64,000 nucleotides of DNA from a virus (IMGVR_UViG_3300027804_000045:1-64000); one strand, 5' to 3'. Shown: positions 9,062-54,761, numbered from the stretch's first letter. Translations and numbers: made by a program. Notes: generated by a model not told the origin, from the sequence alone.

Positions 9062-9283
9062 TTACTTTTTATGGGTGAATGCGTTTTGCTGGGCTAATTG
9101 TTTTTGCCAGCGTTTCTTAGCCATGCTACGGGCTAATTTCTTTTCTACGCTTGGTTTTGTGTAACGCTCTCTTTTTTGTAAGTCAAGGAGCAAGCCGGAT
9201 TCGGACACCTTCTTTTTAAATTTTCTAAGTGCCTTCTCTACGTTCCCGTCTTTTACTATAACTTTTCTTCCGCTTAAATTCAT
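9062..9283 (-). CDS. rpsU: Ribosomal protein bS21
   Basis: V.V.DGNVEKALRKFKKK...G...RERYTKPS pattern; 73 aa, basic. Confidence 0.92.
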   Translation of the reverse strand: MNLSGRKVIVKDGNVEKALRKFKKKVSESGLLLDLQKRERYTKPSVEKKLARSMAKKRWQKQLAQQNAFTHKK

Positions 9284-18678: not shown

Positions 18679-19831
18679 AAATCTTTTTGATGATATCGTA
18701 ATGCTCATATTTTGGAATGCGTTTCCAAAGAGTAGTACCATTTGAAGGTGTCGTTGCCTTTAATGCTTTTACCAACGCGGTGATTGCTTCATTGTTATAA
18801 TACTTATAAAATTCATCGAATTCCTTTTTATTTTTGATTTTTATCCAGATGGTATTATGACCAGTACCATACTCAGGACCTGCATATTTTACCGGGCTCT
18901 GGCCTTTATGAATTCCGTTCTTGCTGATCACCGCCTTATGCTTACCAACGCCCTCATTTTCTGTTATTGTAGACTCGGCAACTTTAATAATATCTCCGAA
19001 ACCTTCTTCATCCTTTTCCCCTACATTAAAGATCAAGGGGACGGTTCCTTCTTGTTCACTTAATTGAGTCCTATAATAACTACCATAATATGCTTGATAG
19101 CCCTCTAACTTTAATGATAATACTTCTAAAGCATAGCGATATGCTTTGATATCATGGTCTGGTAAAAACGGAGGGTTATCAACTAAAAACGATCCTCCAT
19201 CGCTCATGATTTTAACTTTTTTATGTGTCTTGGTAGGCTCAAATACCATGAGTGCTAAAAGAGTATGTGTTTTAGTTTTAGTCAAAGAACGATAAGCCGT
19301 CAATTGAAAAATGTTGGTACGTGTATAGGTGTTCTTATTAGCACGACCAGTGATGATACAAAGTTTGCTTTGTCTCCTGAATTTAGGTACAAAGTGCGTC
19401 ATAGTATCAAAATCAACATTACTTAATACATAGTCGAATGATTTATGTAAAGTAAAACAATTTTTTTCTTCTATGTTTAGAAGAACATCTCTATTGCCTA
19501 AAGCTTTTTTAAGATTACTTTTGGCAAGGCTTATCTGAACTTTATTGATATCATAACCAAAAAGTTGTTTGGTAAAAATATGATTTAGCCTGTCGGTTTC
19601 ATCGGGTATGCAGTCAATAAGAGCATCCATTAAAATATCAGCGAGAACCAACAATATAGTACCAGTACCACATTGCGGATCGCAATATGTCGTATTAGGA
19701 TTAGATAGATCGGTTTTAGGTATTTGATCAACCATGATACGGATGTATTCTTCATCCAGCATGGTTTGATTACCTAACGTATCATACAACTGAAGTTGCT
19801 TGATACGCTTTTTAATATTATTGGAAATCAT
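18659..19831 (-). CDS. N6-adenine MTase-like protein with degenerate catalytic motif
   Basis: SAM motif CDPQCGTG and FGYDIN are intact; the motif IV position reads FDYVLSNVDF instead of NPPY. Confidence 0.65.
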   Translation of the reverse strand: MISNNIKKRIKQLQLYDTLGNQTMLDEEYIRIMVDQIPKTDLSNPNTTYCDPQCGTGTILLVLADILMDALIDCIPDETDRLNHIFTKQLFGYDINKVQISLAKSNLKKALGNRDVLLNIEEKNCFTLHKSFDYVLSNVDFDTMTHFVPKFRRQSKLCIITGRANKNTYTRTNIFQLTAYRSLTKTKTHTLLALMVFEPTKTHKKVKIMSDGGSFLVDNPPFLPDHDIKAYRYALEVLSLKLEGYQAYYGSYYRTQLSEQEGTVPLIFNVGEKDEEGFGDIIKVAESTITENEGVGKHKAVISKNGIHKGQSPVKYAGPEYGTGHNTIWIKIKNKKEFDEFYKYYNNEAITALVKALKATTPSNGTTLWKRIPKYEHYDIIKKIYDKHYK

Positions 19832-26473: not shown

Positions 26474-27067
26474 TCAACTAATTTGGAAACATTTTTGGAA
26501 CGCATCCGGGGAAAGATAACCTTTATAAACCTTATTGTTTGCAGGATCAATGTCATTGAACGGAGGTCTCCATCCGTACTCTTTGGCATGCTGATTACTC
26601 AGCTCACCTTCAGCCCACTTAGTAGGTGCATCAGAGTCCCATTTATTCAAAGATAAAATATCCTTGATCGCTTTATTACCCCATGTTCTTTTAGCAACGT
26701 CCCAAACTAAAACTGTAAGATCGTTTTTTGTAAGATTAGGTAGTAATCCATCATCTATAGATGGTTTCACTTTGAACCATAAATCGTTACCGTTGCTAGT
26801 ACCAGGCTTTGTACTCCAACCAGGAAACCAAGCTAGTTGTCGAACTAATCTTTCGCCTACTGATCCCTTTCTTTTTTTACCTAGACATGGATAACTCATG
26901 CCTACCTTCAAAAAAAGATAATCAATGGCACTTGCCCTGTAGACTATAGCATATACAAAGTTTTTCTTTATGCCATGCTTTCTACAAATTGCATATATTT
27001 GCCTATATGCTGTTAGGTCTTTACAATCAAAATAAAAGTCAGGCTTATGTAAGTCAATTTGTATCAT
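26474..27067 (-). CDS. GIY-YIG-like nuclease candidate
   Basis: FVYAI...LKVGMS...GERLVRQ...AEGEL...PPFN. Start moved to 27067, after TTGACA-17-TATATT. Confidence 0.5.
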   Translation of the reverse strand: MIQIDLHKPDFYFDCKDLTAYRQIYAICRKHGIKKNFVYAIVYRASAIDYLFLKVGMSYPCLGKKRKGSVGERLVRQLAWFPGWSTKPGTSNGNDLWFKVKPSIDDGLLPNLTKNDLTVLVWDVAKRTWGNKAIKDILSLNKWDSDAPTKWAEGELSNQHAKEYGWRPPFNDIDPANNKVYKGYLSPDAFQKCFQIS

Positions 27068-27098
27068 TACAGCAATATAACTTAAGGAGTTATAAATG

Positions 27099-27129
27099 TC
27101 AACTAACTTCGGTACGACCATTACCCAAA
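27099..27129 (+). repeat. 31-bp direct repeat, copy 1
   Basis: TCAACTAACTTCGGTACGACCATTACCCAAA, identical to 28180..28210. Confidence 0.95.
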
Positions 27130-28164
27130 ATTAAACAACATGATACCGGCGGGTTCGACTTTGTTTTTGGACAGTACCATTATGCTTTCGTCTGTATTTA
27201 GATTTGATTTGGCACTAGGTCGTACCCTATTCTTAAGGTCAGTGGTCTGTATATGATGATAGCCCAAACTTTTTGCCAACGTTAAAGTATCCTCGTACAG
27301 TTTATAATTTGAAAAATTCTTTATGTTTATTAGCAATTTACCTTCAGCAATTAGATATTTGTTGATATTTACCAATGTGGGCTTAAGATAATTATCTAAC
27401 CATTGCTGGTATGTAGTACCAGGTTTATATGATTGATTACCTACCCTATAATCTTCAAGACTAAAATATGGAGGACTACTAAAAGCCAATCCAATAGTGT
27501 TCTCCCATTCAGGCACATACACCTCACTACCTTGGCATCGTATGTCGTATTTGCTATCTGTTAGGTTGACTGTATCATAATCCTTTGCCATTTGAAATAA
27601 TCTGTCAACTAACAAGTTATTAGGGTCTGTCCCATAATATTCTACTTTATTTTTCATTGCGCTTAGTAATCTTACACCCCAACCACAACTAAAATCATAA
27701 TACTTGTTATTCACATTGTAATATTTTAATATGTGGTCGGCAGTTTGCATTGGAAAGTTGCTCGGTTTCATAGCAACGCCCCCGCCAGAAATTCTTAAAG
27801 CTGTCTCTAAATTTTGTATATCAGTATTTGTTTTTGGATACACTTTTTCACTGGCTAATGTACGGCTATAAAAATATCTTATCAGATCATTTGACTCAAA
27901 TACCTCTTCTATGCTCCAGCGAGGGGTTTCAAGTTTTACTTTTGCCATCAAATCTTTATAGTAATAGTTGGCTATATCACCGATAGCAGTACCACCGCGC
28001 TTTACGTTTTTTAAATTTTCTTTTACAAGGTTGTAGTCGGGTTTAGTATAATACTGTTGTTTTAGTTCAATACACTTTTCAACAGGCAGGTCATGATAAT
28101 GGTCGGTGTACAAAACCTTACCAAGATGTTCAATGGTATATTTTTTCTTAGTGGTTTTAGCCAC
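27121..28164 (-). CDS. Amino-DNA methyltransferase (SPPY type) 2
   Basis: YDFSCGWGVR; FSSPPYFSLEDY. Confidence 0.85.
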   Translation of the reverse strand: MAKTTKKKYTIEHLGKVLYTDHYHDLPVEKCIELKQQYYTKPDYNLVKENLKNVKRGGTAIGDIANYYYKDLMAKVKLETPRWSIEEVFESNDLIRYFYSRTLASEKVYPKTNTDIQNLETALRISGGGVAMKPSNFPMQTADHILKYYNVNNKYYDFSCGWGVRLLSAMKNKVEYYGTDPNNLLVDRLFQMAKDYDTVNLTDSKYDIRCQGSEVYVPEWENTIGLAFSSPPYFSLEDYRVGNQSYKPGTTYQQWLDNYLKPTLVNINKYLIAEGKLLINIKNFSNYKLYEDTLTLAKSLGYHHIQTTDLKNRVRPSAKSNLNTDESIMVLSKNKVEPAGIMLFNFG

Positions 28165-28210: not shown

Positions 28211-28593
28211 TCGCGTTGACGTACAACACGAATGTCATCACGGCGTTTTTCTGGATCAGCCATTTCTTGCTCGTAAACTTCTAGTGCTACGTTACGGCAC
28301 ACAGTTTGGAACCAACGGTCAACTATCTCGTTGTCTGTGTCATCGGGTCTAATTTTATAACCTTGCTTGACAAGGTTTACAACAAACTTGTCGTTCCAAT
28401 CTAATTCAAAACTACCATTGTTTATATTCGCAGGATCTAATTCAACCTTGAGAATTGCAACATATGGTTCTCCATTTTGTGTAGCCAATTCTTTAGGAGT
28501 TAGTTCCTTTTCCTTCTTCTGAGCCTTTTTAGGTTTAGCTTCAGTTTTAGGAACTTCTGGCTTTTTGAAAAGACTTTTTAGTTTATCAAACAT
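28180..28593 (-). CDS. Conserved hypothetical protein
   Basis: GEPYV...FELDWND.F...IVDRWF..VC motifs. Confidence 0.65.
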   Translation of the reverse strand: MFDKLKSLFKKPEVPKTEAKPKKAQKKEKELTPKELATQNGEPYVAILKVELDPANINNGSFELDWNDKFVVNLVKQGYKIRPDDTDNEIVDRWFQTVCRNVALEVYEQEMADPEKRRDDIRVVRQRDLGNGRTEVS

Positions 28594-29614
28594 AGTTCTT
28601 GTATGTATCAAAAAGTCTCACGCTTGCGAGATTTTTTGCTTTGCTCTCGCACATGATATCAGCCCACTGCCAGTGTTCGTATGCCCAACGATTCATAGCA
28701 TCATTGTAGAAATAGTCGCTATGGGCGCGTAGTTTCTGTTTATTGTACCCACTTTCCATCAATCGCTGTAGGTCATGTCGTTCGGTTGTATTGCACTCAA
28801 TGACGCCATCTTCGCGTGAGACGCTAAAATGCATAGCAGGGCGCACACCACACCAACTGTCAATAACACGCTTGATACGATCATCATTGGGTTGTATGTA
28901 TTCACCTGTCTTGATCCAATGATGATGAATGTCCAGTACTAGACCCAGATGTCCAGCCAGTTCGAGGGTTGAGTCGAGTCCCCACGACATTTCTTCGTTT
29001 TCGATTGTGATGGCATTTCGTGCTTCGGGGCTGAGTCTTGACATAACTCTTTTGATACCGTCGGGGCCTTGGCGACCACTGATGTGGACATTGATCTTGA
29101 TGTCCTGAAATTGTTTACCGTACCCCATCCAACGGGCCATATCGACATGATATTCAAACTCCTCTATACTCTTATTTACTACCTCAGGACGATCACTAGC
29201 CAAAACGACAAACTGATCAGGGTGAAACGACAGACGAACATCATTGGCTCTAGCGGTCTCACCGATGGGAGCAAACCATCGTGCTAGACTATCCTGTACA
29301 TCCTGACGCTGCCAGAAGTACTTGAATTCGTCCATAGTATAGAACGATAGCATGTCGCTAGTAAGACGAACCATTCGCAAACCTGGCTCTAAACTAGCAA
29401 CACGCTTGACAAGATTGTGGGTATTGACAATATTGCGTTTAGCAACTTCAATCAACTTGTCCTCAACAACTTGCTGTGACTTTTGACGCTTTGCCCATGC
29501 GTGTGTAGTGCCGCCGGTGTTGAACCCGTCAGCACTAGCGATCTCGCCTTTTTTATTGATTTCTGCCCATTTGCAAGCGAAACCAATGCGTTTGATATTA
29601 CTGTTGAATGACAT
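28586..29614 (-). CDS. uvsE: UV-damage endonuclease
   Basis: RIGFACK, RLSFHPDQF, INVH, TIENEE, VLDIHHHW, HFS, AHSD, DIMCESKAK. Confidence 0.93.
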   Translation of the reverse strand: MSFNSNIKRIGFACKWAEINKKGEIASADGFNTGGTTHAWAKRQKSQQVVEDKLIEVAKRNIVNTHNLVKRVASLEPGLRMVRLTSDMLSFYTMDEFKYFWQRQDVQDSLARWFAPIGETARANDVRLSFHPDQFVVLASDRPEVVNKSIEEFEYHVDMARWMGYGKQFQDIKINVHISGRQGPDGIKRVMSRLSPEARNAITIENEEMSWGLDSTLELAGHLGLVLDIHHHWIKTGEYIQPNDDRIKRVIDSWCGVRPAMHFSVSREDGVIECNTTERHDLQRLMESGYNKQKLRAHSDYFYNDAMNRWAYEHWQWADIMCESKAKNLASVRLFDTYKNYV

Positions 29615-29656: not shown

Positions 29657-31462
29657 ATGGATATCCGTAAAATTTTAGATATAGTTACTGAAGCAGAAAA
29701 GCCACTAGCAAAGGGCATGAAGGTGTTGAGCCTAGCCCAATTCTTACAACAAAGTGGTGTTGAAGCACCCGAAGGTGAGGATGTAGCAGAAGGCACAGTA
29801 ACCCCTATCAAATCATATCTAGTGATGGCAAGTAGACCAGGAAGAGGTATGTATACAGATGTTGATGTTTTGATCAAGGATACTGGTACAGGTAAGATTG
29901 TTGGACATGTTACAGGTAGAGGTGCTCACCCAAACATGGATAATGAAATGGATATTGCCCACTACGAACTAACATTGAACAAAGATGGCATAGGACCTGA
30001 TCTAAAGAATGGATTTGAATTTGAAGCATATGGTGACCCTCATGAAAGGACAAAAAGAGGTTATCAAGTTTATGCTACAGACAATAGCGGAAAGAATATA
30101 CCAAAGCAAAAACCTAAACCTCGCAGTGATGTTGGACAAAAGGTCGTACAACTACGACCAGAACAACCTAAAAAACCACAAGGTCTATCAGTATTTTCTC
30201 AAGGAAATTTAGAGAAAGCAGCACAAACCGCCCAAGACGATGATAGAGATTATGGTCCAGGCATGGAACTAGTTTCAAATGTTGATTGGTATGCATTTTT
30301 AGAAAAGTTCTTTGGCAAAGAACTATTAGATGTAGATAGTGCTAATGAGATGGGCTATACTGATTGGACAGATAATGGTGATATTGTCTTTACTAGTGGA
30401 GAAGGTACTCCTGATAAAAAGGTAGATGAAGCAGAAAAATTAGGTGGCGTATCAGCAAGAAAACTTCCACCAGAAGAAATGAGAGCATACCTCGACAGAA
30501 TTAGTAAAAAAGAAAAAGAAAAGACAGACAAATATAAACTACCATATATTCATAGCAGCAATATTCCTATCGTCAATGACGATGGTCAGAAGTATGATCT
30601 ACAGAAATTAGCAGCCGCATTTAGCGAACGCCCAAGCAAGATTCTAAAGCAAAATGAAAAGATGCAACACAGTGATGGTACTAGCAGCCAATTCTATAAT
30701 GTTGGCTTACCAGCACTAAAGGGATTAGCGATAGATGAAGATACTGGCGAGTTTGTCGTTATTGATACATGCCCAGGTGCTGGTGCATGTAAACTAGTAT
30801 GCTATGCCATGAAAGGTGGCTATGTACAATGGAAGGCAAGTAGTCTTGGTCAAACAAAACTATTGAACTTCTTATATAATGATCCAGATGGATTCATGGG
30901 TATGTTAGAAAGTGAGATTATTGGTTATGAAGCAAAGAACAAGAAAAAGAATATCAAGACAATTATACGCTGGCATGATGCTGGTGACTTCTTTAGCCCG
31001 CAATATCTAGCAAAAGCATTTGATCTAGCGAAGAAATTCCCAGATGTTGATTTCTATGCTTACACTAAATTAGCAGGTGTGGCACAGGGCGAAAAACCAG
31101 ACAACTTCAAAATCAATTTCAGTGCTGGCGCACAGCCAAGTCAAGAAAAGAAGATTGACTTTCAAAAAACAAAGAATAGTCGTATCGTTCCTAAAGAACT
31201 ATTCAGTGACGCACTTGAGAAAGATAAGAGTGGCAAGTGGCAATATACAAGCCCACAAGCAGAAAAGGCTGTCAAAGATCGTATGGCTATCAAGTATAGT
31301 CTAGATCCAAAATCAGTTATCACTTATGATGAGATGATGAAGATTCCAGTTGATAAAAGCCCCGATGCTAAAGGCAAGTATAATGTTATCGTCAAGCCAG
31401 GTGATGGCGATGATGCTGCCAATCGTAATGATGTATTGAGCAGTCTATTGCTTATACACTAA
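29657..31462 (+). CDS. GP88-like Fe-S (radical-SAM-like) protein with long N-terminal extension
   Basis: TCPGAGACKLVCYA, RWHDAGDF, FYAYTK in the C-terminal half; TAAATA upstream. Confidence 0.7.
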   Translation: MDIRKILDIVTEAEKPLAKGMKVLSLAQFLQQSGVEAPEGEDVAEGTVTPIKSYLVMASRPGRGMYTDVDVLIKDTGTGKIVGHVTGRGAHPNMDNEMDIAHYELTLNKDGIGPDLKNGFEFEAYGDPHERTKRGYQVYATDNSGKNIPKQKPKPRSDVGQKVVQLRPEQPKKPQGLSVFSQGNLEKAAQTAQDDDRDYGPGMELVSNVDWYAFLEKFFGKELLDVDSANEMGYTDWTDNGDIVFTSGEGTPDKKVDEAEKLGGVSARKLPPEEMRAYLDRISKKEKEKTDKYKLPYIHSSNIPIVNDDGQKYDLQKLAAAFSERPSKILKQNEKMQHSDGTSSQFYNVGLPALKGLAIDEDTGEFVVIDTCPGAGACKLVCYAMKGGYVQWKASSLGQTKLLNFLYNDPDGFMGMLESEIIGYEAKNKKKNIKTIIRWHDAGDFFSPQYLAKAFDLAKKFPDVDFYAYTKLAGVAQGEKPDNFKINFSAGAQPSQEKKIDFQKTKNSRIVPKELFSDALEKDKSGKWQYTSPQAEKAVKDRMAIKYSLDPKSVITYDEMMKIPVDKSPDAKGKYNVIVKPGDGDDAANRNDVLSSLLLIH

Positions 31463-32288
31463 CTTTTAGCAGATCCTTGAAGTCATACATGTGTTTCATG
31501 TAACTACCAGGATTGGCTAATACGCTAACGGCAGGATCGCCTTTCTTTCTTGGTCCAATCAATACTTCAAAGTTTGTTTGGTTGACGATCTTGAACATCT
31601 CTACCATGTCGCGCACACTCTTACCTACACCATGGCCTAAGTTCTCTAATCCATTTGCTGGCTGCTCAACAGCCATCATCAATGCGTTACATATTTCATA
31701 AACATGTACATAGTCACGCACACAAGTACCGTCTGGTGTATCATAGTCATCACCGTGAATAGTAAATGTACCAGTATCCTTTGCCTTGATCAATGCTGAT
31801 AGTAAGCCATCTGGGTTTGTGGGTTGTATACCATCCATGCCAACAACATTGTAGAATCTAAACATAGTATAATCTTGTGGCTTATGTTTGGTACAATATT
31901 CTACTACACAGTCCTCGCTAGCTCTTTTGCTAATACTATATGGGTTAGCGCATAGACTTGCTTGCCCAGTGCTAGCATAGATAAAATTCTTTGTTGGAAT
32001 CTTATTCAATACATTCATAGTTCCATTGACATTGGTGATGTAATAGAGTATGGGCATAGTTTCACTCTTCCCAACATTAACTAGTGCGGCTAAGTGTATG
32101 ACAGCATCATATGGATCAGTTTGATCGGGAATAGTGAATAATCTATTGATGTCTACTTTATAGAACTTATCTACAGGTACGATTGGGTCATTGATATCTA
32201 ATCCATGAACCTCATAATTACCCTTCAGCATCTTGCATAGATGACTGCCTATATATCCACTACTTCCTGTTACTAATACCTTTTTCAT
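31452..32288 (-). CDS. galE: NAD-dependent sugar-nucleotide epimerase (UDP-glucose 4-epimerase-like)
   Basis: VTGSSGYIGSH, HLAA, YSISK (YxxxK), DYDTPDGTCVRDYVHV. Confidence 0.88.
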   Translation of the reverse strand: MKKVLVTGSSGYIGSHLCKMLKGNYEVHGLDINDPIVPVDKFYKVDINRLFTIPDQTDPYDAVIHLAALVNVGKSETMPILYYITNVNGTMNVLNKIPTKNFIYASTGQASLCANPYSISKRASEDCVVEYCTKHKPQDYTMFRFYNVVGMDGIQPTNPDGLLSALIKAKDTGTFTIHGDDYDTPDGTCVRDYVHVYEICNALMMAVEQPANGLENLGHGVGKSVRDMVEMFKIVNQTNFEVLIGPRKKGDPAVSVLANPGSYMKHMYDFKDLLKVSV

Positions 32289-33616
32289 AATCCCTCAAAT
32301 AAGTTTTCATTTTCTACTGGCACAGTAAATGTTGGATCTTTACTCAACCATGTTTCTTTATCTGTATATATGATTGTATATCTGTGCCTGTTAGATAGTA
32401 CGCTTTTGACATCATCGATACAAATCTGTGACCTATTCAAACTTTCAACGTAATCGCTATACTTTATTGTACTATGTGATAATATTCCTGCTGTAGTATT
32501 ATTACTGATTTTTGGTTTAAAGTCTTTGAAACATTCGCTATACTTGTGAAATATACCATCTTCTAAAAACTGTTGTGTCTTTAGCACGCCTTCACTATAA
32601 TACTTTTCCGGCTTGTCATACTTAGTGTATAGTTCAGACACAATTTTTGCCATGTTCTTTTTATTACAAGTGTAATAATGCTTCTTGTCAAAGTTATGTG
32701 TCCAGCGCATGTTTTCTAATGCTACAGTTGGCATGTGTAGTTGCTGTTCAAGAAACGCAATGCCGTAACTTTCTACAGTGCTTGGATTGAATGCTACACG
32801 ACAACTTGTGATGAAATCAATCTTTTCTTGCCCGACTACATCATAAGTGATCTTATAATCAGTGATTCCCAGATCACTAAACTTCTTTTCAAACTTCTTA
32901 GCACCATTGTTGCTTGTAATAATTCTTGCTGGTAATCCAGTTTGCTTGATCAACTCAAGATATAGTTCTGGGTTCTTACCCTCTTCCCAACGACCAATAA
33001 ACAATACTCCTTCACGGTCATTATTATATTCAGTCAATAAATTTCGTTCAGGTAATGGTATAGGTAAGTGATATGATCCTTCAATCTGTAATCTATTATA
33101 GTTGCTTTGTGTACCTATATAGATGCTCGGCAATTGTAGCTGTAATCGCATCATATCATTGACACTATCTAAGAATGGATTCTTTGTATCTTTAAATAAC
33201 TGACTTTCTAAGTGGGTATAGGCAATGACCTGAATATAGTTTTCTAATCCTAGCGTACTAGCAACTTGTACAGCTTCATATGGATTACAGATGAAAACTT
33301 CATATAGATTTTTTCTTAATGCTTTGATGATACTTTCACGGAAGTTAGCCATGCGCTCATAGTTATAACTATCTCCATACATGAATATGTTTCTATGCTT
33401 GGCATAACTATATGCTTCATCAGGATAAATGACATTTGTATTCAGTAATTCAACGAATTCTTTATTATGCGGAACTGTATCAGTGATGATATCAACTTTA
33501 ATATTGTGGGCGGTCATAATTTCAATAAAACTTTTAGCATACTGACCTACACCGCCAGTCGCTTTCAAGTGTTCGCTACTCATGATGAACCCTATTCTTT
33601 TACTATAATTTCTCAT
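32285..33616 (-). CDS. GT-B glycosyltransferase (GT4-like) B
   Basis: GGVG N-terminal loop, LFIGRWEEGKN, PSTVESYGIAFLE. Confidence 0.85.
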   Translation of the reverse strand: MRNYSKRIGFIMSSEHLKATGGVGQYAKSFIEIMTAHNIKVDIITDTVPHNKEFVELLNTNVIYPDEAYSYAKHRNIFMYGDSYNYERMANFRESIIKALRKNLYEVFICNPYEAVQVASTLGLENYIQVIAYTHLESQLFKDTKNPFLDSVNDMMRLQLQLPSIYIGTQSNYNRLQIEGSYHLPIPLPERNLLTEYNNDREGVLFIGRWEEGKNPELYLELIKQTGLPARIITSNNGAKKFEKKFSDLGITDYKITYDVVGQEKIDFITSCRVAFNPSTVESYGIAFLEQQLHMPTVALENMRWTHNFDKKHYYTCNKKNMAKIVSELYTKYDKPEKYYSEGVLKTQQFLEDGIFHKYSECFKDFKPKISNNTTAGILSHSTIKYSDYVESLNRSQICIDDVKSVLSNRHRYTIIYTDKETWLSKDPTFTVPVENENLFEGL

Positions 33617-33963
33617 ATAAAAGTTCTTGCTAATACTAAGCAACTTACTAATACCCATGCTGTATTAAACCACACCATAGTTGGTAATAACTTTTTGTTG
33701 CTTGCCCAAATCAATAAAAGGCTACTGATAAGTGTGATCAAGTAGAACCACCAAACAGTGGTATAGAATAATACTTGCGATACGATGATCGCCATCTTGC
33801 TCAAATAACTAGTTGCTTCGACAAAATTATAATTCGTCCAGTATTTGGGTGATACCCACATTAATAGACATTCTTTTACTTTTTCCCAACCAGTAAGGTA
33901 ATATGTTATACCAGTCAGCACTATACATGCTAAGATTGCTATGCTAATTTGTACTGATGTCAT
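33613..33963 (-). CDS. Multi-pass membrane protein
   Basis: Four hydrophobic segments; KLLPT motif. Confidence 0.6.
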   Translation of the reverse strand: MTSVQISIAILACIVLTGITYYLTGWEKVKECLLMWVSPKYWTNYNFVEATSYLSKMAIIVSQVLFYTTVWWFYLITLISSLLLIWASNKKLLPTMVWFNTAWVLVSCLVLARTFI

Positions 33964-34187: not shown

Positions 34188-35051
34188 TCATGTACCCCAA
34201 GCATTCTTGAACAATGGCACTTGAATTCTATCGCTGTATCGTAGTCCATGCTTCATAGCAAGTTCTGCTACTGTGCGATTGTTTAGGCTGTATACACTTT
34301 CAACACCGCCTACTGGCATTAGATAAACATTACCAGTAAAGCCCACGCTACGATATATTTTTATTACCTCTAGTGCCTCTGTACAATCTTCATGTGATGC
34401 AATCACAAACTTTAGATATGTATGGCCTATATCTTGATAACCACATACAACTTCGGGTCGTATTGCTTCTTCTCTCTTCTCTCCGCTCACGCTTAGTTTT
34501 GCGCTTACACTGAATGTCACACTATCATATCCTCGTGTTAGATGCCAGTTCTTATCTTCCTGCCAACTTACAAGATATTCTGCTAGGTCTTTAGATAATT
34601 CTTGTGTACCATTCGTTTCAAAAGTAATCTCTTTGAGATTGTGCATCAATTCATGGTCAAGTAAATCCGGATAACTGCGCTGCCAACCTAGCAATGGCTC
34701 ACCACCTGTGATAACCAAATGTTCATCATTCCACTCTTTATATGGCAATATGTCAACAATATTTTCTGCTAGTTCATCTGTACTATATGTAGGGCTGAGT
34801 TTCTTGAAACGTACATCCCAACTTGCGTAACTATCACAACCAGTACTGACTAATGGCAATTCTTTATAGTCTTTATAATCTTTGGGGTTTACCTTGTGTC
34901 TCTCTTGCGACTTCTCGCCTCGTTTCATTCCAAAGCCATCGCAAGTGAAATTACAACCAAACGTGCGTAAGAACACGCTAGGCACGCCCATGTAACGTCC
35001 TTCACCTTGAATGCTATAGAATAGTTCGCTGACCTTGATTGACTTCTTCAT
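34188..35051 (-). CDS. queE: 7-carboxy-7-deazaguanine synthase (radical SAM)
   Basis: ELFYSIQGEG, FLRTFGCNFTC...GCDS, ITGGEPLL, FETNGT, SAK. Confidence 0.92.
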   Translation of the reverse strand: MKKSIKVSELFYSIQGEGRYMGVPSVFLRTFGCNFTCDGFGMKRGEKSQERHKVNPKDYKDYKELPLVSTGCDSYASWDVRFKKLSPTYSTDELAENIVDILPYKEWNDEHLVITGGEPLLGWQRSYPDLLDHELMHNLKEITFETNGTQELSKDLAEYLVSWQEDKNWHLTRGYDSVTFSVSAKLSVSGEKREEAIRPEVVCGYQDIGHTYLKFVIASHEDCTEALEVIKIYRSVGFTGNVYLMPVGGVESVYSLNNRTVAELAMKHGLRYSDRIQVPLFKNAWGT

Positions 35052-37817: not shown

Positions 37818-38309
37818 TCATCCTTCGTATATGGCACTATTACTGTCATGCTCAAATACCTCTACACTTTTTACACGAACTTGTCCATTCACGATGATGC
37901 CTGGAGTCGCTTTCATTTCTTCAATGATCTCAGCCATCTTTTTGTATGCCATCTCAGCAAATTTTTCACAGCCTACTGCTGGAACGATGCGTAGATCAAG
38001 TATGCCTAGATCCTTGTAGCCACCTTTGATCTCAGCAAGTCTCTTAAATGTTTCAAGTTCTGGATCATCTTCAGCGACAAGCGTAGTATGATCAAACATA
38101 TATTCAGCCCATTGTTTGAACTTCTTTAGCCCGCCAAAGTCCATAACCCAGTTACGACAATCAAGTGTTTCCGCCTCAAAGACTAAACGTATGCCAATGC
38201 TGTATCCATGTATGAGGCTACAGTGGCTATGTGTGCTGCGCCATTGACGGAACGCGCAACTCAAGCCACGATCATTGCCATATGTCTTTGTGCTGTAATA
38301 CTTAGCCAT
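37818..38309 (-). CDS. queD: 6-carboxy-5,6,7,8-tetrahydropterin synthase
   Basis: CAFRQW...SHCSLIHGY, WVMDFGG, FDHT, GCEKFA, VFEH..NSA. Confidence 0.9.
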   Translation of the reverse strand: MAKYYSTKTYGNDRGLSCAFRQWRSTHSHCSLIHGYSIGIRLVFEAETLDCRNWVMDFGGLKKFKQWAEYMFDHTTLVAEDDPELETFKRLAEIKGGYKDLGILDLRIVPAVGCEKFAEMAYKKMAEIIEEMKATPGIIVNGQVRVKSVEVFEHDSNSAIYEG

Positions 38310-38465
38310 TCTTGTTCTCGTATTCTTCAGCAATCTTGTTCTTTAATGTTTCAAATAACGGATCCAATGCTATACTAGGATTTAATTCTAGTTCGGTATC
38401 AGTGATACAATTCTTGTCATAAATCACTACTACCTTATCACCCTTATTATTTTCAAATGTTAACT

Positions 38466-47193: not shown

Positions 47194-48744
47194 TTAGTTC
47201 TCCAAAACTTCATTGATAGCCTCATCACTATCTTCTATTGTTTCTTCAACCTCTTCCTCAACTTTTTCAACACTAAACAATTCATCAAACATCGTCATAG
47301 CATTCACAGTACGCTTACCGCTGATGCCCTGACTACCACTCTGCATTTGCATCCAGAACTTGTTATAGTATTCTATCACATTCAAACTATCTTCTCTAGT
47401 TTTCTGGCTGAATACTTCATCTACAACTTTACCGAAATAGATACCAAAATTCTCATTCATGATCATCTTGGGAATCACACCTTGTTCATACTGGCGATTC
47501 GCCTCTTGGACAGCGGTGATATGCTGATATACATTATGGGCTTGAATCAATGTGTATGAAAGTGTATCCCAACTTGTTTTTGTCTCTTTACCTTGATTAT
47601 TTATGAAACCCTGCCCACGATAGCATAGGTCGCGTATCATCATTCGTTCAGTCACAGGACTGTCAGTGAAAACTTCATGTATGCCGTCTGCGATTACAGC
47701 ATCGCTAAACTTGCGATTGTCGTTGGCATAGTCTTTGCTCTCGGCGGTCTTTTCCATGCTATATGACCACTTCTTGTCGTGTTCAATATTAGTGTTGAAA
47801 TATGCTAGACCTTTAGCAGCGCCATAGAATGGGCTAGCACAGTCAAATGTAATCATAAAGTTTGGGTTATGATACTTACGTATTGCCTTTTGGATGTCAC
47901 TAAAAAGTACAGCATATTCCATGATACTAGTACCAAGGCAGTGTAACAAGTCATGCTTGCCAGGAATTAAAAGGCCATCATGGATAATATGTACGAGGCG
48001 CTTCAGCATCAAGTGAATATCAATCTTGTTTTGGCCACCGAACGCCCAGCCATTGAAATGATTATCTGGGTAGATATTTGGGTCGCAATACTTTTTCATT
48101 TCTTGATACCAGTCATCACTTTGCTTGTGATTACGACCCTGCATTACGTTTAAGAATTTACAACGACCATCACGGTTCTTGATAAAGTATTCGTTGTTGA
48201 TATGTGTGGCTGCAATCGCTTCTTCAATTGTGCTGATACCATGCGCACTCTTGCCGGTTTTCTTATCCTTGATATGATACGTGGTCAAACTCTGTGATGG
48301 AATATCAAGACACATACCATAATCCATATATGTATCCATCCACTTCAAAACGGCCTTGCGCTTTTCTAGTGCGCGTGGGCAGTTAGGGTCTTTCCAATCT
48401 GCTGGCCACTGACACTTGAGAATCTGGAATCCGCCACTATCTCCTAACATGAACGTGCCTGGCTCTCTGCGTCTAATGATACTTTCGGCTGGATCGTCCA
48501 CATTAATATCAAGGTTGGCATGACCCGCACTATAGAGACCCCACTTATAAGTGTATAAGCCTTGTGTACTATTCAAAAAATTAAGGCATTCAACATCACC
48601 ATTGAACCCTGCAGGGACACGTTCAGCAGGAAAGTAATTCTCACCTTCGCGCTGCTTTCCTAGCCCACTAATAAAGAATGAACTAACTGCGGGCAAGAAT
48701 AATGCCCAATCTGGATTTTGTTGTTTGGATAAGTCAATAGTCAT
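47194..48744 (-). CDS. dpdA: TGT-fold guanine transglycosylase (DpdA-like DNA 7-deazaguanine insertase)
   Basis: DSGGFQ, CLDIP, MQG, GWAFGG, HCLG, FDCAS; lacks the CxCxxC Zn site of tRNA TGTs; clustered with folE/queD/queE. Confidence 0.82.
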   Translation of the reverse strand: MTIDLSKQQNPDWALFLPAVSSFFISGLGKQREGENYFPAERVPAGFNGDVECLNFLNSTQGLYTYKWGLYSAGHANLDINVDDPAESIIRRREPGTFMLGDSGGFQILKCQWPADWKDPNCPRALEKRKAVLKWMDTYMDYGMCLDIPSQSLTTYHIKDKKTGKSAHGISTIEEAIAATHINNEYFIKNRDGRCKFLNVMQGRNHKQSDDWYQEMKKYCDPNIYPDNHFNGWAFGGQNKIDIHLMLKRLVHIIHDGLLIPGKHDLLHCLGTSIMEYAVLFSDIQKAIRKYHNPNFMITFDCASPFYGAAKGLAYFNTNIEHDKKWSYSMEKTAESKDYANDNRKFSDAVIADGIHEVFTDSPVTERMMIRDLCYRGQGFINNQGKETKTSWDTLSYTLIQAHNVYQHITAVQEANRQYEQGVIPKMIMNENFGIYFGKVVDEVFSQKTREDSLNVIEYYNKFWMQMQSGSQGISGKRTVNAMTMFDELFSVEKVEEEVEETIEDSDEAINEVLEN

Positions 48745-49391
48745 AATATATCAGTATCGTTCCTGTCGTAGAATCGAACACGTTTGATTAAATCATAATC
48801 ATGTTGATAAAAAGATGTTAAGCTTTCAATAAAATTTGTATTTTCTGTAGCATACTGTTTTAATACATTAAAGAATCTTATTTTTTCTGGGCTATAATAC
48901 ATGTAGTTATTACGCAAGTTTTTAGCATTAATTCTTTTGTGGTTTAAATCACGAAATTTACATGAAACAAAATGCTCTAGATTGGGTATCAAATTTTTAT
49001 CCATATAAAAAAAGGTAATTTGATCTGTATCTAATCCCTCTAGGAAATTACGCTGTAGTTCTGTGTGTTCATCAAAAAACTTTCTGTCACAAATAAATTT
49101 TATAACATCGCTATTTTCTTTTTGCATGATATCTTGATGAAATCTAAAAAAATACTCTGTGACACCGCTAAACCATCTGTCTATTGGATCTCTTAAACAA
49201 ACTACATATCTTTTATTTTTAAAATTTTTATAGTTAAAACCTTTTGTAAAATTAAAGTTCTGTGTAAAATAATTTTTAAGCAATGTACTTGCACATTTAG
49301 GTATAGGTATATACCCATATTCAAAATCTTCTACAGTTAAAATATCTCCCCAACCATGAAAAAAATATTGATTGTAACGTTCAAGTCTCAT
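48741..49391 (-). CDS. Sulfotransferase family 2-like protein
   Basis: 5'-PSB IPKCAST, 3'-PB RDPIDRWFSG, DEHT..Q, FY..DY. Confidence 0.75.
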   Translation of the reverse strand: MRLERYNQYFFHGWGDILTVEDFEYGYIPIPKCASTLLKNYFTQNFNFTKGFNYKNFKNKRYVVCLRDPIDRWFSGVTEYFFRFHQDIMQKENSDVIKFICDRKFFDEHTELQRNFLEGLDTDQITFFYMDKNLIPNLEHFVSCKFRDLNHKRINAKNLRNNYMYYSPEKIRFFNVLKQYATENTNFIESLTSFYQHDYDLIKRVRFYDRNDTDIL

Positions 49392-49707
49392 TTTGCACTA
49401 ATTTCAATATTATGTCAAGTTTTTCTTTAGCATCTTTCACAGCAGGATATTGACTAGCAAGTTGTTCTACTTTCTTTTCATATGCCATGCGCTTCTTAGC
49501 CCACTCTAATACTTCGCCTATCTGTGGATCACTGCGTAATTCAATAGTATTGTTTATTTTATACCATCTACCGTCATTATTGTTATCACAAACTTCAAAG
49601 CATTTGCTCAAGCCGTTCCAACGAACTTGACCGCTTGCGGCAGGTAGCGTGTAATCACGATCTACCTGCCATACTAACGGATACGTAGTTGATTCTATCT
49701 TTATCAC
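49381..49707 (-). CDS. Conserved hypothetical protein
   Basis: SGQVRWNG...EV.D...W...LEWAKKRM...YPAVKDA. Confidence 0.6.
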   Translation of the reverse strand: MIKIESTTYPLVWQVDRDYTLPAASGQVRWNGLSKCFEVCDNNNDGRWYKINNTIELRSDPQIGEVLEWAKKRMAYEKKVEQLASQYPAVKDAKEKLDIILKLVQNET

Positions 49708-50426
49708 TTGCTCTGTGCAGGCAATAGATAACGATAAGTTGCTAGACCACTATCAACAGTAATCTCAGCAGCGCCTTGATCACTGATGCGCACAGTCTTA
49801 CTACCTGGCAAGTCCATGATTGCTAGGAATACCTTGACAGGCCACTGCCATGCACGACCTAATGTGCCTTCTACGTCTGGATGAAACACAAAGTTTGCGC
49901 TATGTGTGCTTGCATCACCAAAGTAAATCTTTAGATCGCCCTTGTCAGTCTTTGTAGTGAAGTTGTTTTCTTCGCTGTTAGCACTAGCCTGCTTCTTCAA
50001 GCGCATGATGCCAGCAACAGTAGGCTCAAACTCAACGTTCCATGCTGCGCCCTTGAACTTGACATCCTTGACCTTCTCTTCAACGATAGCCTTAGCCATC
50101 AGTCGATAATCGTTGACGAAATCACCGACCTTAGTCTCAAAGTGAACGCTAGTCGCTACATCGTCTTTGTTGCGTGTGACGCTGATCTTTGCATGTTCAT
50201 CATAGTCATCAAAGCCCAAGATAGTCTTGAGTTTGCCTAGATTTGGCATACCAAACGTGCCGATAAAATCTGCTGATGGATTCTTGAATGTGCCTTCAAC
50301 GACAACGCTCTTATCTTCAGCGATTGCTGAAACAACAGTTGCCTTGTCTGTGCCATTGACCTTGATGAGTTCAATGACGCCTAGTCCATGTATATACTGA
50401 ATCAAGTCTTGTAAATTATCTTTCAT
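49704..50426 (-). CDS. DNA polymerase sliding clamp (gp45/PCNA-like)
   Basis: 240 aa directly downstream of PolB; FG...LGKL and C-terminal ISDQGA..I.V......Y.Y.LPA fit the gp45/PCNA architecture. Confidence 0.7.
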   Translation of the reverse strand: MKDNLQDLIQYIHGLGVIELIKVNGTDKATVVSAIAEDKSVVVEGTFKNPSADFIGTFGMPNLGKLKTILGFDDYDEHAKISVTRNKDDVATSVHFETKVGDFVNDYRLMAKAIVEEKVKDVKFKGAAWNVEFEPTVAGIMRLKKQASANSEENNFTTKTDKGDLKIYFGDASTHSANFVFHPDVEGTLGRAWQWPVKVFLAIMDLPGSKTVRISDQGAAEITVDSGLATYRYLLPAQSK

Positions 50427-50499
50427 GTTATCCTCTTGTTGTATTTAGGTCGTAACTATATGTAATATATAGGAATTTTTTGCGTGTGTCAAACATTTG

Positions 50500-53205
50500 T
50501 TATCCGAAACTAAACAAATCATCAAACGTGCTGTTAGTATCTGTGTTGGCTTTTAGATCCCATTTCAATACGCCAAGCAAGTTCTCAACTTTCTTGTCAA
50601 CCAATGTCGCTTCCATTGCTTGATCATCAAATGGTAACTCTTGAAACCATCTTGGAAGTCTAAGTTCATCGACAGGATATGCCACGCTAGTGAAGTTTAG
50701 TGGATTTGGCTTGAGTTTACAAACGATGACCTTCATGCCATCAAGTATTTTCATACTATAGTTGTCGCTATTGACTCTACGCAAGTAGTTCCAATTCAAT
50801 GCTGCGCGAACGTGACCGGGCATGTTTGCCTTGCCGGTCTTGCTATTACTCTCTAGATCACCATAGAACGTGAGTTTGTTCACACCTTTTGGACTGCCCT
50901 TCGTCCAACTATCTTGCTTGCCAAGTTCTACCTTGAACTCCTTGATACGCTCAATAACATCTTCTCTAGTTTTACCAGCGAGTACCATCTCAAGCACTTC
51001 AAACAAAAAGTCTTGAACATATCGTGGCGTGTCGGCACGTTTCAAGTCAAGACCCATAGCCTTGATCTTTCCTTGCTTGCCATCTTTGTCTAGTCTTTTG
51101 CCTTCTTTGTCAAAGATGTTGATAGCATAACGCTTCTTTGTGATGAACAGACTGCGATCACCAATCAATTCACGACCAGCCTTGATAACACACATCTTTC
51201 GTGGAACATGGAAAGCACGTTCACAGAAACTTGGGAAGGTATCGTTTGCCTGATCAGCGATGTTGTCATAGAGTTGGACACAGAGTTCCTTATTCCACTC
51301 CATATCACCATTCTGTATTTGCGAATTCAGAATGGGCCATGCGCTGAAATAACAACTGTCAGTATCGCCATATACAATCGCATCACCATAATAGTCATAT
51401 TTACCAGTGATAATCTCATTGATCTGCGCACTCATATGCTTGACGATCTGTCGCCCGCTTAGTGTCACGCTCTGACCAATACGCTTGTCATAGAAACGGC
51501 AATGTTCATTCAACAATGCACCATAAGCACTGTTCAACAAAATCTTACGCACTAACTGACGTTTATCCCAATACTCAATATCTTCCTTACTAGTAGATTC
51601 CTTGAGTTTCTTCTGCATAGTTTTACGATCACTATACCATTTAGTCAATAGACCGGGGATCACACCTTCACTATCTGATCTAAAGATCGTGCCGTTTGCC
51701 GATAAGATATATGGCTTGTTGCTGTCAAAGATTAGTTTCCATACTTCAGCGGCGCTCATCTCTACGCTCTCGCCACTCTCAAAGTCAAGTGTGAGCATAG
51801 TGCCACGTTCTTGATTCATCACGGCTTCGTATTCGAGGCTACCGAACTGACCTTCCCAAAGCAACGAACTCATCTCAAGTTCGTCATCTTCGTCGTATCT
51901 TGCCTTCTCGCTAGCAAGTTTACGTGCCTTGTCAGTCAAGTATTGTTCAGTCAATGTTTGACGCAATTGCCCGACGATTGTTTCAGGCGCCATGTTGAGT
52001 GTACGAATTGCTGATGGATATAGACTGTTGATGTCAACAGCACCTACCCATTCATGTATGCCTTTCTTTGGCACAGCAACATAAGCACCTGCTGCTGCCA
52101 TGTCACTATCGCTGCTATTCTTTTTCTTGTCAGGAACCATGAGTCCGCGCTCATGAGCTTCGTTCATCACAGCCATCTCAATCATTGCTACAGAGCCCAT
52201 GACAGTTGGCAACAATACAGTATTCTCATGCGCTAGCGCATTAGCAAGATCAAGGAACTTTAGTTTGTTGTGAATCTTCAAAAGCAACATCGTATCCTGA
52301 CGATTATACTGTATGAACGTCTTGAAGTCTTTGTTATATAGTTGGTCTAGTGTGCCTTCATATTGTGTCTTACGCTCACCAACTTCCATCTCACCGATAC
52401 TGTCGAGCGAATAACTATGACGACTTTCATAGTTGTACTTCTTATACAACTGTAGATAGTCCATGTGTACACGACCAACTAGATCATATGTCGTTTCAGT
52501 CTTACCATAACGCTCATATTCTCTTGGCTTTGGTGTTTGACCAAGCAAACAGAATTTGCGTGTATCATCTTTGCTCATCACTCTAGTCACACGATTTACC
52601 ATGTAGGGTATATCGTAACCTTCAGAGTTCCAGCCAGTGAGAATGTCAGCATCTTTGATTAGTTCAAAGAATGTCTCAAACATCTCTATTTCGCTACGAA
52701 ATAGAATTGTGTTCGGGAAGTCACTGACTAACTCTTGAGCCGTTTCATCACTCATATGCTTGGGGGGTATAGCAAGTGTCACAAGTGTATCTTGCCAGTC
52801 CAAATACACCGAGATAGCTGTCACCGGATTAAAAGGGTCACTAGTGGGGCTAAAACCCTTTTCCGGATCAAAATCTACCTCAATGTCAAAGAAACATGTA
52901 TGGAGTTTTGGAGGCTCACAGCCTAAGTAGTTTTCACTCAAACAGCGGAATATCACATTGATATCCGATTCATACAGTTTCTTATTGCTGTGGATACGTT
53001 TTTCTTTTTCAAACTCACTACGCTTGCGTGTGCTGAACCTCGACAATGGCTCGCCATAGATGCTGCGATACTTGCCTTTATTATCAGTATAATAGAAAGT
53101 ATAGTTGGCAGGAAACTCATTGTATGTGCGCTTGCCGTCAGGCTGGCGCTCTACAACAAATATCCTGTCAGTATCCCTATCGTGGATAGCGTCTACATAA
53201 CTCAT
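50500..53205 (-). CDS. Family B DNA polymerase
   Basis: Exo FDIE, GWNSEGYD, YNRQD; Pol DINSLYPS, KILLNSAYG, YGDTDS, KKRY. Confidence 0.97.
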   Translation of the reverse strand: MSYVDAIHDRDTDRIFVVERQPDGKRTYNEFPANYTFYYTDNKGKYRSIYGEPLSRFSTRKRSEFEKEKRIHSNKKLYESDINVIFRCLSENYLGCEPPKLHTCFFDIEVDFDPEKGFSPTSDPFNPVTAISVYLDWQDTLVTLAIPPKHMSDETAQELVSDFPNTILFRSEIEMFETFFELIKDADILTGWNSEGYDIPYMVNRVTRVMSKDDTRKFCLLGQTPKPREYERYGKTETTYDLVGRVHMDYLQLYKKYNYESRHSYSLDSIGEMEVGERKTQYEGTLDQLYNKDFKTFIQYNRQDTMLLLKIHNKLKFLDLANALAHENTVLLPTVMGSVAMIEMAVMNEAHERGLMVPDKKKNSSDSDMAAAGAYVAVPKKGIHEWVGAVDINSLYPSAIRTLNMAPETIVGQLRQTLTEQYLTDKARKLASEKARYDEDDELEMSSLLWEGQFGSLEYEAVMNQERGTMLTLDFESGESVEMSAAEVWKLIFDSNKPYILSANGTIFRSDSEGVIPGLLTKWYSDRKTMQKKLKESTSKEDIEYWDKRQLVRKILLNSAYGALLNEHCRFYDKRIGQSVTLSGRQIVKHMSAQINEIITGKYDYYGDAIVYGDTDSCYFSAWPILNSQIQNGDMEWNKELCVQLYDNIADQANDTFPSFCERAFHVPRKMCVIKAGRELIGDRSLFITKKRYAINIFDKEGKRLDKDGKQGKIKAMGLDLKRADTPRYVQDFLFEVLEMVLAGKTREDVIERIKEFKVELGKQDSWTKGSPKGVNKLTFYGDLESNSKTGKANMPGHVRAALNWNYLRRVNSDNYSMKILDGMKVIVCKLKPNPLNFTSVAYPVDELRLPRWFQELPFDDQAMEATLVDKKVENLLGVLKWDLKANTDTNSTFDDLFSFG

Positions 53206-53522: not shown

Positions 53523-54761
53523 TTATTTTTTTGTAAAGACCCAGAGGTCTTCATAGTTGCCACCGCGTGTCTTTTTTGCTTGTCTTGTGCCCGCGATAGC
53601 TGACCATTGAACTTTATAGTGATTGGTAAAGTCTAAATGCCGTGCTGCGATATCACGCATGTCCTCACTTATGGTCATTTTTACTTTATCTTTGTTTGTA
53701 TAATTACTGATGACGAATCCAAATTTAGCATCAGGCTTCATCACTTTAGCACATAGTTTCACTGTTTCTTCCCAATACATAATCAACCAACTATTATAGT
53801 CGGGAAAACTGTTCGCGCTTTGATTATCGCTAGGATACAATTCTAAATCAAAATAGGGCGGGCTAAACAATACGGCATCTACACTATTTTTATATTTGTT
53901 TATGAAATCATGCTTATCATCTAATTGCTCACTAGGGCAAAGATATAGATCAACGGTCTTTTCACCCTTTGTGAAAAGTTTTTTATCATGTTCCTTTTGT
54001 AATAATCTACCATTGTCAACGACATCAGGTATTACATCTGTAGCGATAAAATGCTTGAAGTCGCTGGCATAAAATGCTAACTGATAACTATTCCAGCCCA
54101 TGACGGGGGCAAATAATGTTTCACCGGTAAATACTTCTTTGAGTATTTCCTTATATGTACATGGATTGAATATGCTAGCACGATTAGCACCTATCATAAA
54201 GTCTAACCAAAACTGACCGCTATCACCATCATACTTACAGATATGATCAAAAAATGCAGGCCCTACTAGACTGTTTCGTAGTTTGAAATCTTCAAACATG
54301 ACACGCATCAAACCGAAAGTATATTCACTATCAGTAGTCCATAATTTCTTTGTGTTATAGAAATTGACAAAATTGATGTTCTTACAAATCTTGCCGTACT
54401 TACTATTTGTGCGACCAGAAAAAGTATCACCGTTCAATATGTTTGAATCGGGTAAATCTAAATAAAACTCTACAGGTTGTGGTAACTTACCATAACGATT
54501 ATACCAAGATAATAGTGTTTGTTTAGCATCTGTTACCAGTATCTTATATAAGTTTTGTTTATATAAGTTTAGCCGTTGCTTTCTATCATCCTTTTTGCTT
54601 ACACGATTTACGAATGTATCGAGGTCGCTACGGACTACAAAAGCGCCACTGCGATCCATTACATCTAATACACAAATTCTGTCACAGAATTCTTGATATC
54701 TGACACTGGGCAAGTTGAATTGTTGTAGGAAATCTTGCTCGGTAAAAAATAGGTTTTTCAT
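53523..54761 (-). CDS. Amino-DNA methyltransferase (SPPY type) 3
   Basis: Variant motif I FAPVMGWNS; LFSPPYFDLELY. Confidence 0.78.
   Translation of the reverse strand: MKNLFFTEQDFLQQFNLPSVRYQEFCDRICVLDVMDRSGAFVVRSDLDTFVNRVSKKDDRKQRLNLYKQNLYKILVTDAKQTLLSWYNRYGKLPQPVEFYLDLPDSNILNGDTFSGRTNSKYGKICKNINFVNFYNTKKLWTTDSEYTFGLMRVMFEDFKLRNSLVGPAFFDHICKYDGDSGQFWLDFMIGANRASIFNPCTYKEILKEVFTGETLFAPVMGWNSYQLAFYASDFKHFIATDVIPDVVDNGRLLQKEHDKKLFTKGEKTVDLYLCPSEQLDDKHDFINKYKNSVDAVLFSPPYFDLELYPSDNQSANSFPDYNSWLIMYWEETVKLCAKVMKPDAKFGFVISNYTNKDKVKMTISEDMRDIAARHLDFTNHYKVQWSAIAGTRQAKKTRGGNYEDLWVFTKK

Follow-up and report, generated by a model that had tools for sequence, protein, structure and literature searches.

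How might a phage bring the enzymes that modify its DNA to the DNA it has newly made? The question is raised by a 64,000-nucleotide stretch of viral DNA (IMGVR_UViG_3300027804_000045:1-64000; here called the window), which is the first 64 kb of one 150,743-bp virus record in IMG/VR. Between positions 47194 and 53205, the window encodes a family B DNA polymerase (PolB), a candidate sliding clamp, and an enzyme resembling the transglycosylase DpdA, and both PolB and the enzyme carry a short FDxLFS peptide in their C-terminal tails. The original prediction, made from the sequence alone, proposed that base-exchange, methylation, and glycosylation enzymes of this phage ride the clamp by means of such peptides. 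In bacteriophage T4, clamp clients that share a C-terminal peptide are textbook knowledge; in T4 and RB69, this peptide docks on the trimeric phage clamp gp45. Our analysis makes it likely, as judged from sequence comparisons, that the base-exchange enzyme, a single methyltransferase, and a single glycosyltransferase reach clamps on newly made phage DNA through T4-type clamp-interaction peptides.

A polymerase-type peptide on a DpdA-like enzyme

PolB (50500-53205, minus strand; 901 residues) is a family B DNA polymerase of the T4 gp43 type, with Pfam matches to DNA_pol_B (5e-40) and DNA_pol_B_exo1 (1.6e-23) and a match to phrog_262 over residues 5-895 (5e-202). It shares 27% identity with T4 gp43 and is collinear with it from residue 152 to 844 of 901 (172 to 845 of 898 in gp43), an alignment that stops about 55 residues short of both C-termini. 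As predicted, the open reading frame (ORF) ends in NSTFDDLFSFG. Because the two polymerases are collinear to near both C-termini, the peptide STFDDLFSFG (residues 892-901; 50503-50532, minus strand) occupies the site of the gp45-binding peptide of gp43, which ends ASLDFLFG; the T4 records of gp55 and gp33 end PSLDFLYEAND and NTLDFLL. PolB homologs in related loci have an xLFxFG-type tail end in 77 of 77 cases. By homology to T4 and RB69, this presumed clamp-interaction peptide would bind the phage's own clamp. An intein or homing-endonuclease insertion interrupts PolB in the phage PA5oct (L001) and in the metagenome lineages L174 and L177, where the C-terminal piece retains the clamp-type tail.

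The second protein with this peptide is an enzyme of 516 residues (47194-48744, minus strand). Its AlphaFold2 model, built on an alignment of 101 representatives of less than 50% identity, had a mean predicted local distance difference test score (pLDDT) of 90.7 and a predicted template-modelling score of 0.89. The best 50 of its 175 Foldseek matches at E ≤ 1e-3 were all tRNA-guanine transglycosylases (TGTs; E about 1e-6), and its family matched a phage TGT-domain protein in hhalign (98.7%). DpdA and TGT enzymes have three invariant active-site aspartates, serving as general acid/base, in base recognition, and as nucleophile, together with a histidine and a structural zinc site of the form CxCxxC...H (PMC10164549). 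In the window's enzyme, Asp-102 (in GDSGGFQ), Asp-147, His-268, and Asp-301 (in FDC) are invariant across 101 diverse homologs; we equated them with the catalytic residues of DpdA through these motifs, not by superposition. The enzyme thus resembles the known DpdA proteins (bDpdA and DpdA1-4; PMC6884629, PMC10516641, PMC10164549) in its TGT TIM barrel, its three aspartates and histidine, and the FolE/QueD/QueE-type genes nearby, but differs from them in lacking the zinc site, since the CxCxxC motif was found in none of 101 family members.

Only one of these 101 members gave a weak Pfam TGT match, and the enzyme itself gave no Pfam match and no PDB match by phmmer or profile searches. We rejected membership in DpdA3, the type of phiST CGPG_00065: the hhalign match spans only 83 columns at 86% probability, and the two proteins differ in length (259 residues in phiST DpdA3, 516 here). 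A tblastn search with the enzyme returned no phiST, Campylobacter, or Flavobacterium phage match even at E ≤ 5. Given the missing zinc site and the weak relation to phiST DpdA3, we place the family on a branch of its own within the TGT superfamily, DpdA-like but zinc-less, as none of DpdA1-4 fits. For the DpdA-like enzyme of the original prediction, the fold was thus supported, whereas the zinc site and a place among DpdA1-4 were lacking.

Downstream of the enzyme gene lie genes for FolE, a QueE-like radical S-adenosylmethionine enzyme, a GalE-like epimerase, and glycosyltransferases, and homologous loci encode QueE, QueF, QueC, and FolE. The DNA of PA5oct, which carries a homolog of the enzyme (EST35_0316, with SFNSLF in its tail), is resistant to G-dependent restriction enzymes (PMC12191111), pointing to modified G. 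We infer that the putative substrate is DNA, in which guanine would be exchanged for a 7-deazaguanine.

In the model, residues 1-470 are folded and 472-516 are disordered, with pLDDT below 50 at 472-487 and 495-516. Within this tail, the PolB-like peptide TMFDELFS (residues 484-491; 47272-47295, minus strand) bears a one-turn helix at 485-489 and is followed by 25 mostly acidic residues, the position that had been described for it. Conservation among DpdA-like homologs had been proposed as a check on the motif, and it is borne out: in 86 distinct tails of the close clade, Phe-486 is conserved in 100%, and Leu-489 and Phe-490 in 99% each, against only 29-72% for residues 491-497. The linker SGSQGxSGK ahead of the motif (residues 469-477; 47314-47340) and Asn-481 show 100% conservation within the close clade, so the conserved stretch is possibly longer than the FDxLF core.

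The motif also moves. Variants without the internal copy bear a new one at the C-terminus (STFNSFFE in L014, MFNELFQLGT in L021, and NPDLFSIS in L054; P0100 ends NLDQFF), and other variants terminate directly after it. Among 105 representatives of less than 50% identity, 44 carry the motif, 34 of them as LF or MF in the last 8 residues (2.7 expected) and 10 as the motif followed by an acidic tail. Many homologs, such as those of L033, L052, Vibrio phage 2.275.O, L172, and L174, have it at the extreme C-terminus without any acidic tail. Two homologs that lack the motif, P0309 and P0353, are located in integrase-bearing bacterial islands without PolB or clamp. A related TGT-domain protein of 538 residues in Vibrio phage vB_VcorM_GR7B (L182:2602-4218) keeps CxCxxC and has a long Lys-rich tail in place of the LF peptide; this tail may be an alternative means of staying on DNA.

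The acidic tail itself (residues 492-516; 47197-47271, minus strand) contains a second conserved element, IEDSD-D/E followed by a predicted helix at 506-515, in which Asp-505, Ser-506, and Asp-507 are 97-100% conserved. The element may bind a second partner or mimic DNA. In distant homologs, an acidic linker leads to a similar amphipathic end, e.g. ...NDEKLTELEQGL in PA5oct.

Short hydrophobic C-termini are common, and the likeness of the two tails might be a meaningless coincidence. A loose definition would allow this, as the genome shows no excess of ORFs with LF among their last 12 residues (12 versus about 9 expected). Strict motifs, however, are far above expectation. FDxLF is confined to PolB and the enzyme among the 213 ORFs of the 150.7-kb record, whereas about 0.05 ORFs with FDxLF in the last 35 residues are expected (Poisson P about 1.4e-3; 5 of 2000 shuffles), and C-terminal LFxFG was observed in 2 ORFs versus about 0.002 expected. 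Such tails are kept in hundreds of homologs, are limited to few families, and co-vary with the cognate PolB tail. We therefore rejected chance, which we find barely credible.

The co-variation was examined in nine lineages, in which the flanks of the enzyme motif fit the cognate PolB tail far better than non-cognate tails (permutation p = 3.5e-4; p = 0.0016 for the residues before the core and 0.05 for those after it). The PolB and enzyme tails are, respectively, DLFSFG and ELFSVE in the window, SLFGW and SLFDVD in PA5oct, NTDLFDW and NNDLFGW in Vibrio phage 2.275.O, DDLFDF and NNLFDFS in L172, SGLFGW and NGLFDW in L174, STFFEF and LSLFEF in L176, KLFNY and SLFEF in L177, and KMFTF and KLFDF in L276; Phosso is the ninth lineage. 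In the 349-kb Vibrio phage 2.275.O, LFxW ends were found in only three real ORFs, including PolB and the enzyme. Scans for LFxW ends in PA5oct and in this phage gave counts no higher than those of a control pattern, and the requirement for a real ORF left 1 and 3. The third LFxW ORF of Vibrio phage 2.275.O (L186) ends ...LSSLFEW, is at least 89 residues long, and lies near 118.9 kb of its record.

Similar tails could also result from gene conversion or recombination between neighbours, or from lineage-specific composition. On that account, the enzyme tail would work mainly via its acidic part, for example by mimicking DNA or by autoinhibition, with no clamp-related role for the LF core. Of 21 bases in the motif-coding stretches of polB and the enzyme gene, 19 are indeed identical. 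Gene conversion could contribute to the co-variation, given the relatedness of the nine lineages and the 3 kb between the two genes, and a conserved element is also present in the acidic tail itself. Nevertheless, the core is kept while its flanks diverge, it reappears at new sites in otherwise unrelated tails, and many homologs have the C-terminal motif and no acidic tail. The tails of a glycosyltransferase and a methyltransferase, described below, are encoded 17-23 kb from polB. We consider this explanation decidedly unlikely.

A predicted sliding clamp between polB and the enzyme gene

The ORF at 49704-50426 (minus strand; 240 residues) had been named as the clamp to which the peptides would bind. 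Its best Foldseek matches listed were all PCNA chains, aligned over their full length (E 8e-6), among 255 matches at E ≤ 1e-3. In VIA, residues 119-240 matched PCNA, RB69/T4 gp45 (1b77, 1czd, 6drt), and the beta clamp with Z of about 11, and this C-terminal domain agrees with PCNA and gp45 with a root-mean-square deviation of about 3 Å over about 113 residues. The protein gave no Pfam match and no PDB match by phmmer or profile searches; as these searches were empty, the assignment rests on fold and synteny. Clamp homologs come after PolB in PA5oct, GAP32, Vibrio phage 2.275.O, and Phosso. These data support a sliding-clamp fold, and we assign the ORF as a predicted sliding clamp of the PCNA/gp45 superfamily and a putative ring former.

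The clamp gene lies between polB and the enzyme gene, as predicted; the order is polB, clamp, two ORFs, and enzyme. The first of the two ORFs (49381-49707, minus strand) encodes 108 residues, and PA5oct and Vibrio phage 2.275.O have small ORFs in its place, a comparison of position and not of sequence. The other (48741-49391, minus strand; 216 residues) has no tail motif and ends ...RFYDRNDTDIL. Neither has a Pfam or PHROG match. The order PolB-clamp-enzyme, with 7-deazaguanine synthesis genes nearby, recurs in PA5oct, Vibrio phage 2.275.O, and several metagenome lineages. Phosso is an exception, with its enzyme gene far from PolB and clamp.

An RFC-like clamp loader is encoded outside the window, at 80194-81117 of the genome, where the ORF matches PF13177 with 29.6 bits, above the cut-off, and an AAA family at 80650-80997; its N-terminus has an RFC-like W-x-E-x-Y-R-P. 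For replication, the phage has a family B polymerase of the T4 type, a sliding clamp with the PCNA fold, and a clamp loader resembling RFC. Jumbo phages that combine a split mini-DnaE with a family B polymerase, a PCNA-type clamp, and an RFC-like loader were described by Iyer et al. as "group 2.2" (PMC7824862), and this phage fits the description. The PolB of the window is 41-46% identical to those of the jumbo phages Phosso, GAP32, CBB, Vibrio phage 2.275.O, and Atu_ph07. CheckV puts the record at 43% completeness, which implies a full genome of about 350 kb. Public metagenomes hold more than 6,000 homologs each of the clamp candidate and the 516-residue enzyme, some on contigs of 300-360 kb.

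A 168-residue ORF adjoining the clamp loader (genome 81845-82351, outside the window; L165:2696-3202) ends ...NSLYYDLSIDEFLK (...DLSIDEFLK), and we rejected it as a bearer of the motif. Its segment NSLYYDLxI(D/E)EFLK is block-conserved in 27 distinct tails from related loci, which indicates the end of a domain and not a motif on a variable linker. The ORF matches, as one piece, the split mini-DnaE described for group 2.2 jumbo phages in PMC7824862.

The shared peptide might instead be a docking or recognition signal for some other partner, such as a phage ClpX-like unfoldase that reads it as a degron, a single-stranded DNA-binding protein (SSB), a helicase, or the polymerase. There are precedents for such signals: ClpX substrates are often recognised via short C-terminal tags, and in SSBs, acidic tails with a terminal aromatic residue act as partner-binding tags. 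The window also encodes an AAA+ protein (ORF 9280-10488) that resembles ClpX (AAA match of 1.3e-18 at 9838-10158), and ORF 4325-4924 looks by eye like ClpP, which together would make an unfoldase and protease pair relevant to a degron. However, a degron on a replicative polymerase is implausible, and the tail of PolB stands at the exact site of, and is similar to, the gp45-binding peptide of T4/RB69 gp43. The enzyme gene, moreover, follows the clamp gene in nearly all lineages examined, Phosso excepted. Another partner is thus unlikely.

Tailed methyltransferase, glycosyltransferase, and further candidates

The original prediction had extended the peptide to a methyltransferase ending IMLFNFG and a glycosyltransferase ending ENLFEGL, the latter with a motif that it called weak. 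Both ends were confirmed (...GIMLFNFG and ...ENENLFEGL), and both proved to be conserved. The methyltransferase (27121-28164, minus strand; 347 residues) is a paralog of the SPPY-type amino DNA methyltransferases, assigned from its motifs and the weak PHROG matches of a paralog. It aligns with its paralogs at 53523-54761 and 17518-18741, all sharing an invariant SPPYF. Both paralogs stop at the start of a 13-residue C-terminal extension, KVEPAGIMLFNFG (27124-27162), and hence have no tail. The LF(N/D)FG end is kept in all seven close homologs.

The second enzyme (32285-33658, minus strand; 457 residues) is a GT4-type (GT-B) glycosyltransferase, with a Pfam match to Glycos_transf_1 of 8.5e-5, below the cut-off, and a place among GT4 clusters in the ESM Atlas at 0.97. 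Since loose LF ends are not enriched within this genome, we judged its tail (32288-32308) by conservation among homologs rather than by within-genome statistics. Of homologs 40-97% identical to it, 39 of 40 end in xLF(E/D/S/Q)(G/F/W)x, and the preceding 10 residues vary.

Across 35 gene families sampled in related loci, a consistent tail was found only in PolB (77 of 77), the methyltransferase (7 of 7), the glycosyltransferase (39 of 40), and the family of ORF 26474 (5 of 9). Together, these results provide five independent lines of evidence that the peptide is functional: its conservation as an island, the disorder around it, its relocation, its co-variation with the PolB tail, and its restriction to particular families.

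ORF 26474-27121 (minus strand; 215 residues), directly after the tailed methyltransferase, has no Pfam or PHROG match and ends in a degenerate motif, ...DAFQKCFQIS. The ends of its homologs include STFLDLFEIG, NGLFQFD, YNLFGM, and NEVFAFS, and from these sequences it is a possible further client. ORF 37818-38333 (171 residues), also in the modification locus, ends ...SAIYEG in the window, and several homologs end ...WNEDLF, ...WNEDLFQ, or ...WNEDLFAGF; with such a tail in 6 of 14 family members, it may be a client in some phages only. In Phosso, a 136-residue ORF adjoining FolE (L003:9520-9927) ends ...NLNDLFDFG, a near-match to the Phosso PolB tail, ...TFNDLFTF; the DpdA-like enzyme of this phage is encoded about 175 kb away.

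Other C-termini in the modification locus were not counted. The end of QueE (34188-35051), ...PLFKNAWGT, was rejected as a clamp peptide because we judged it an invariant part of the domain, based in part on what we assume of QueE C-termini in general. UvdE (28586-29614) and GalE (31452-32288) have conserved C-termini of a different kind. That of UvdE, a UvdE-type UV endonuclease by Pfam (5e-36), is NLASFxLY(D/E)xY, unlike the LF tail.

Probable recruitment to the clamp and its implications

From the shared sequence and the co-variation, the tails other than that of PolB would bind the same clamp pocket as the PolB tail. In the mechanism that we propose, each peptide would dock in a hydrophobic pocket of a clamp subunit. 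Clamps loaded by the phage loader on replicating phage DNA, or remaining behind the fork, would take the enzymes with them along the newly made duplex, which would render base exchange, methylation, and glycosylation efficient and coupled to replication; host DNA could be spared. The claim that modification enzymes ride the clamp thus stands in its supporting parts, namely the fold of the clamp, the conservation and co-variation of the motif, and the extension of the methyltransferase; the docking itself is what we infer.

Besides the relatedness and proximity discussed above, several observations weigh against recruitment to the clamp. In the clade of the window, the motif of the enzyme is internal, with 25 acidic residues after it, whereas T4 gp55 has 4 residues after its motif. 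The enzyme tail of Phosso is weaker (...VEGLF), and the 12-kb contig that encodes the tailed homolog L277 (6625-7944, ...QTMFNTLFQ) contains no PolB or clamp; its partner genes may lie elsewhere, or L277 may be an exception. The whole-protein model of the clamp is poor (pLDDT 59), since the alignment behind it was shallow; good alignment is confined to the C-terminal domain, and the N-terminal half is poorly modelled. No sequence-level link of the clamp to gp45 emerged from phmmer and profile searches against the PDB or when the clamp alignment was compared with T4 gp45 in hhalign. Finally, binding of T4 alpha-glucosyltransferase to gp45 had been proposed from in vitro work cited by a 2025 preprint (bioRxiv 10.64898/2025.12.06.692756), but that preprint could reproduce the interaction neither in vitro nor in vivo.

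The arrangement in the window resembles that of the T4 and RB69 clients of gp45 (gp43, gp33, gp55, and DNA ligase), which are unrelated proteins with a short hydrophobic-aromatic peptide at or near the C-terminus; for the ligase, the source is a paper as cited in PMC7824862. It differs in that the clients here are DNA-modifying enzymes and not replication or transcription factors, in that the core is F-D-x-L-F-x-F/W and not L-D-F-L-F, and in that the clamp has no detectable sequence similarity to T4 gp45. As in the alpha-glucosyltransferase proposal, a phage DNA-modifying enzyme would ride the clamp during replication. The alpha- and beta-glucosyltransferases of T4, however, have no gp43-like tail, whereas in the window a conserved, co-varying peptide provides the link.

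Among eukaryotic PCNA clients, DNMT1 and UNG2 are recruited via PIP boxes. In them, too, DNA-modifying or base-excising enzymes are brought to new DNA by a short peptide in a disordered region. The PIP box, Qxx[ILM]xx[FY][FY], nevertheless differs in consensus and has a separate origin, and the peptide described here would serve phage DNA hypermodification. The clamp as a "tool-belt" has been reviewed (PMC9690074). In the literature on DpdA/TGT-like and other hypermodification enzymes, we found no paper linking them to a clamp peptide, and the interaction of T4 alpha-glucosyltransferase with gp45 was the only published precedent found in that on phage DNA modification.

The DpdA field views these enzymes as acting after replication, and the distant DpdA3 and DpdA4 are inactive in E. 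coli (PMC10516641). Neither this inactivity nor the contrast between subfamilies that replace all G and those that replace less than 1% has been explained. A clamp-docking peptide on a DpdA-like enzyme offers a testable mechanism, recruitment to clamps on phage DNA. Its occurrence also on a methyltransferase paralog and a glycosyltransferase hints at a general phage route that ties hypermodification to replication, and it bears on the disputed claim for T4 glucosyltransferase and gp45. In practice, the tail can flag glycosyltransferases and methyltransferases that act on DNA in phage genomes, and it suggests co-expression of clamp and loader when modification pathways are rebuilt. PA5oct, a culturable Pseudomonas phage with the same arrangement, is a possible test system.

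A broader possibility, which we advance tentatively and with somewhat less than even confidence, is that the clamp serves as a tool-belt for the whole hypermodification line of base exchange, methylation, and glycosylation in a large and globally abundant group of jumbo phages, with the clamp loader selecting the DNA to be modified. If true, it would make modification of the phage DNA near complete, leave host DNA unmodified, and explain why such transglycosylases may fail when placed alone in a foreign host.

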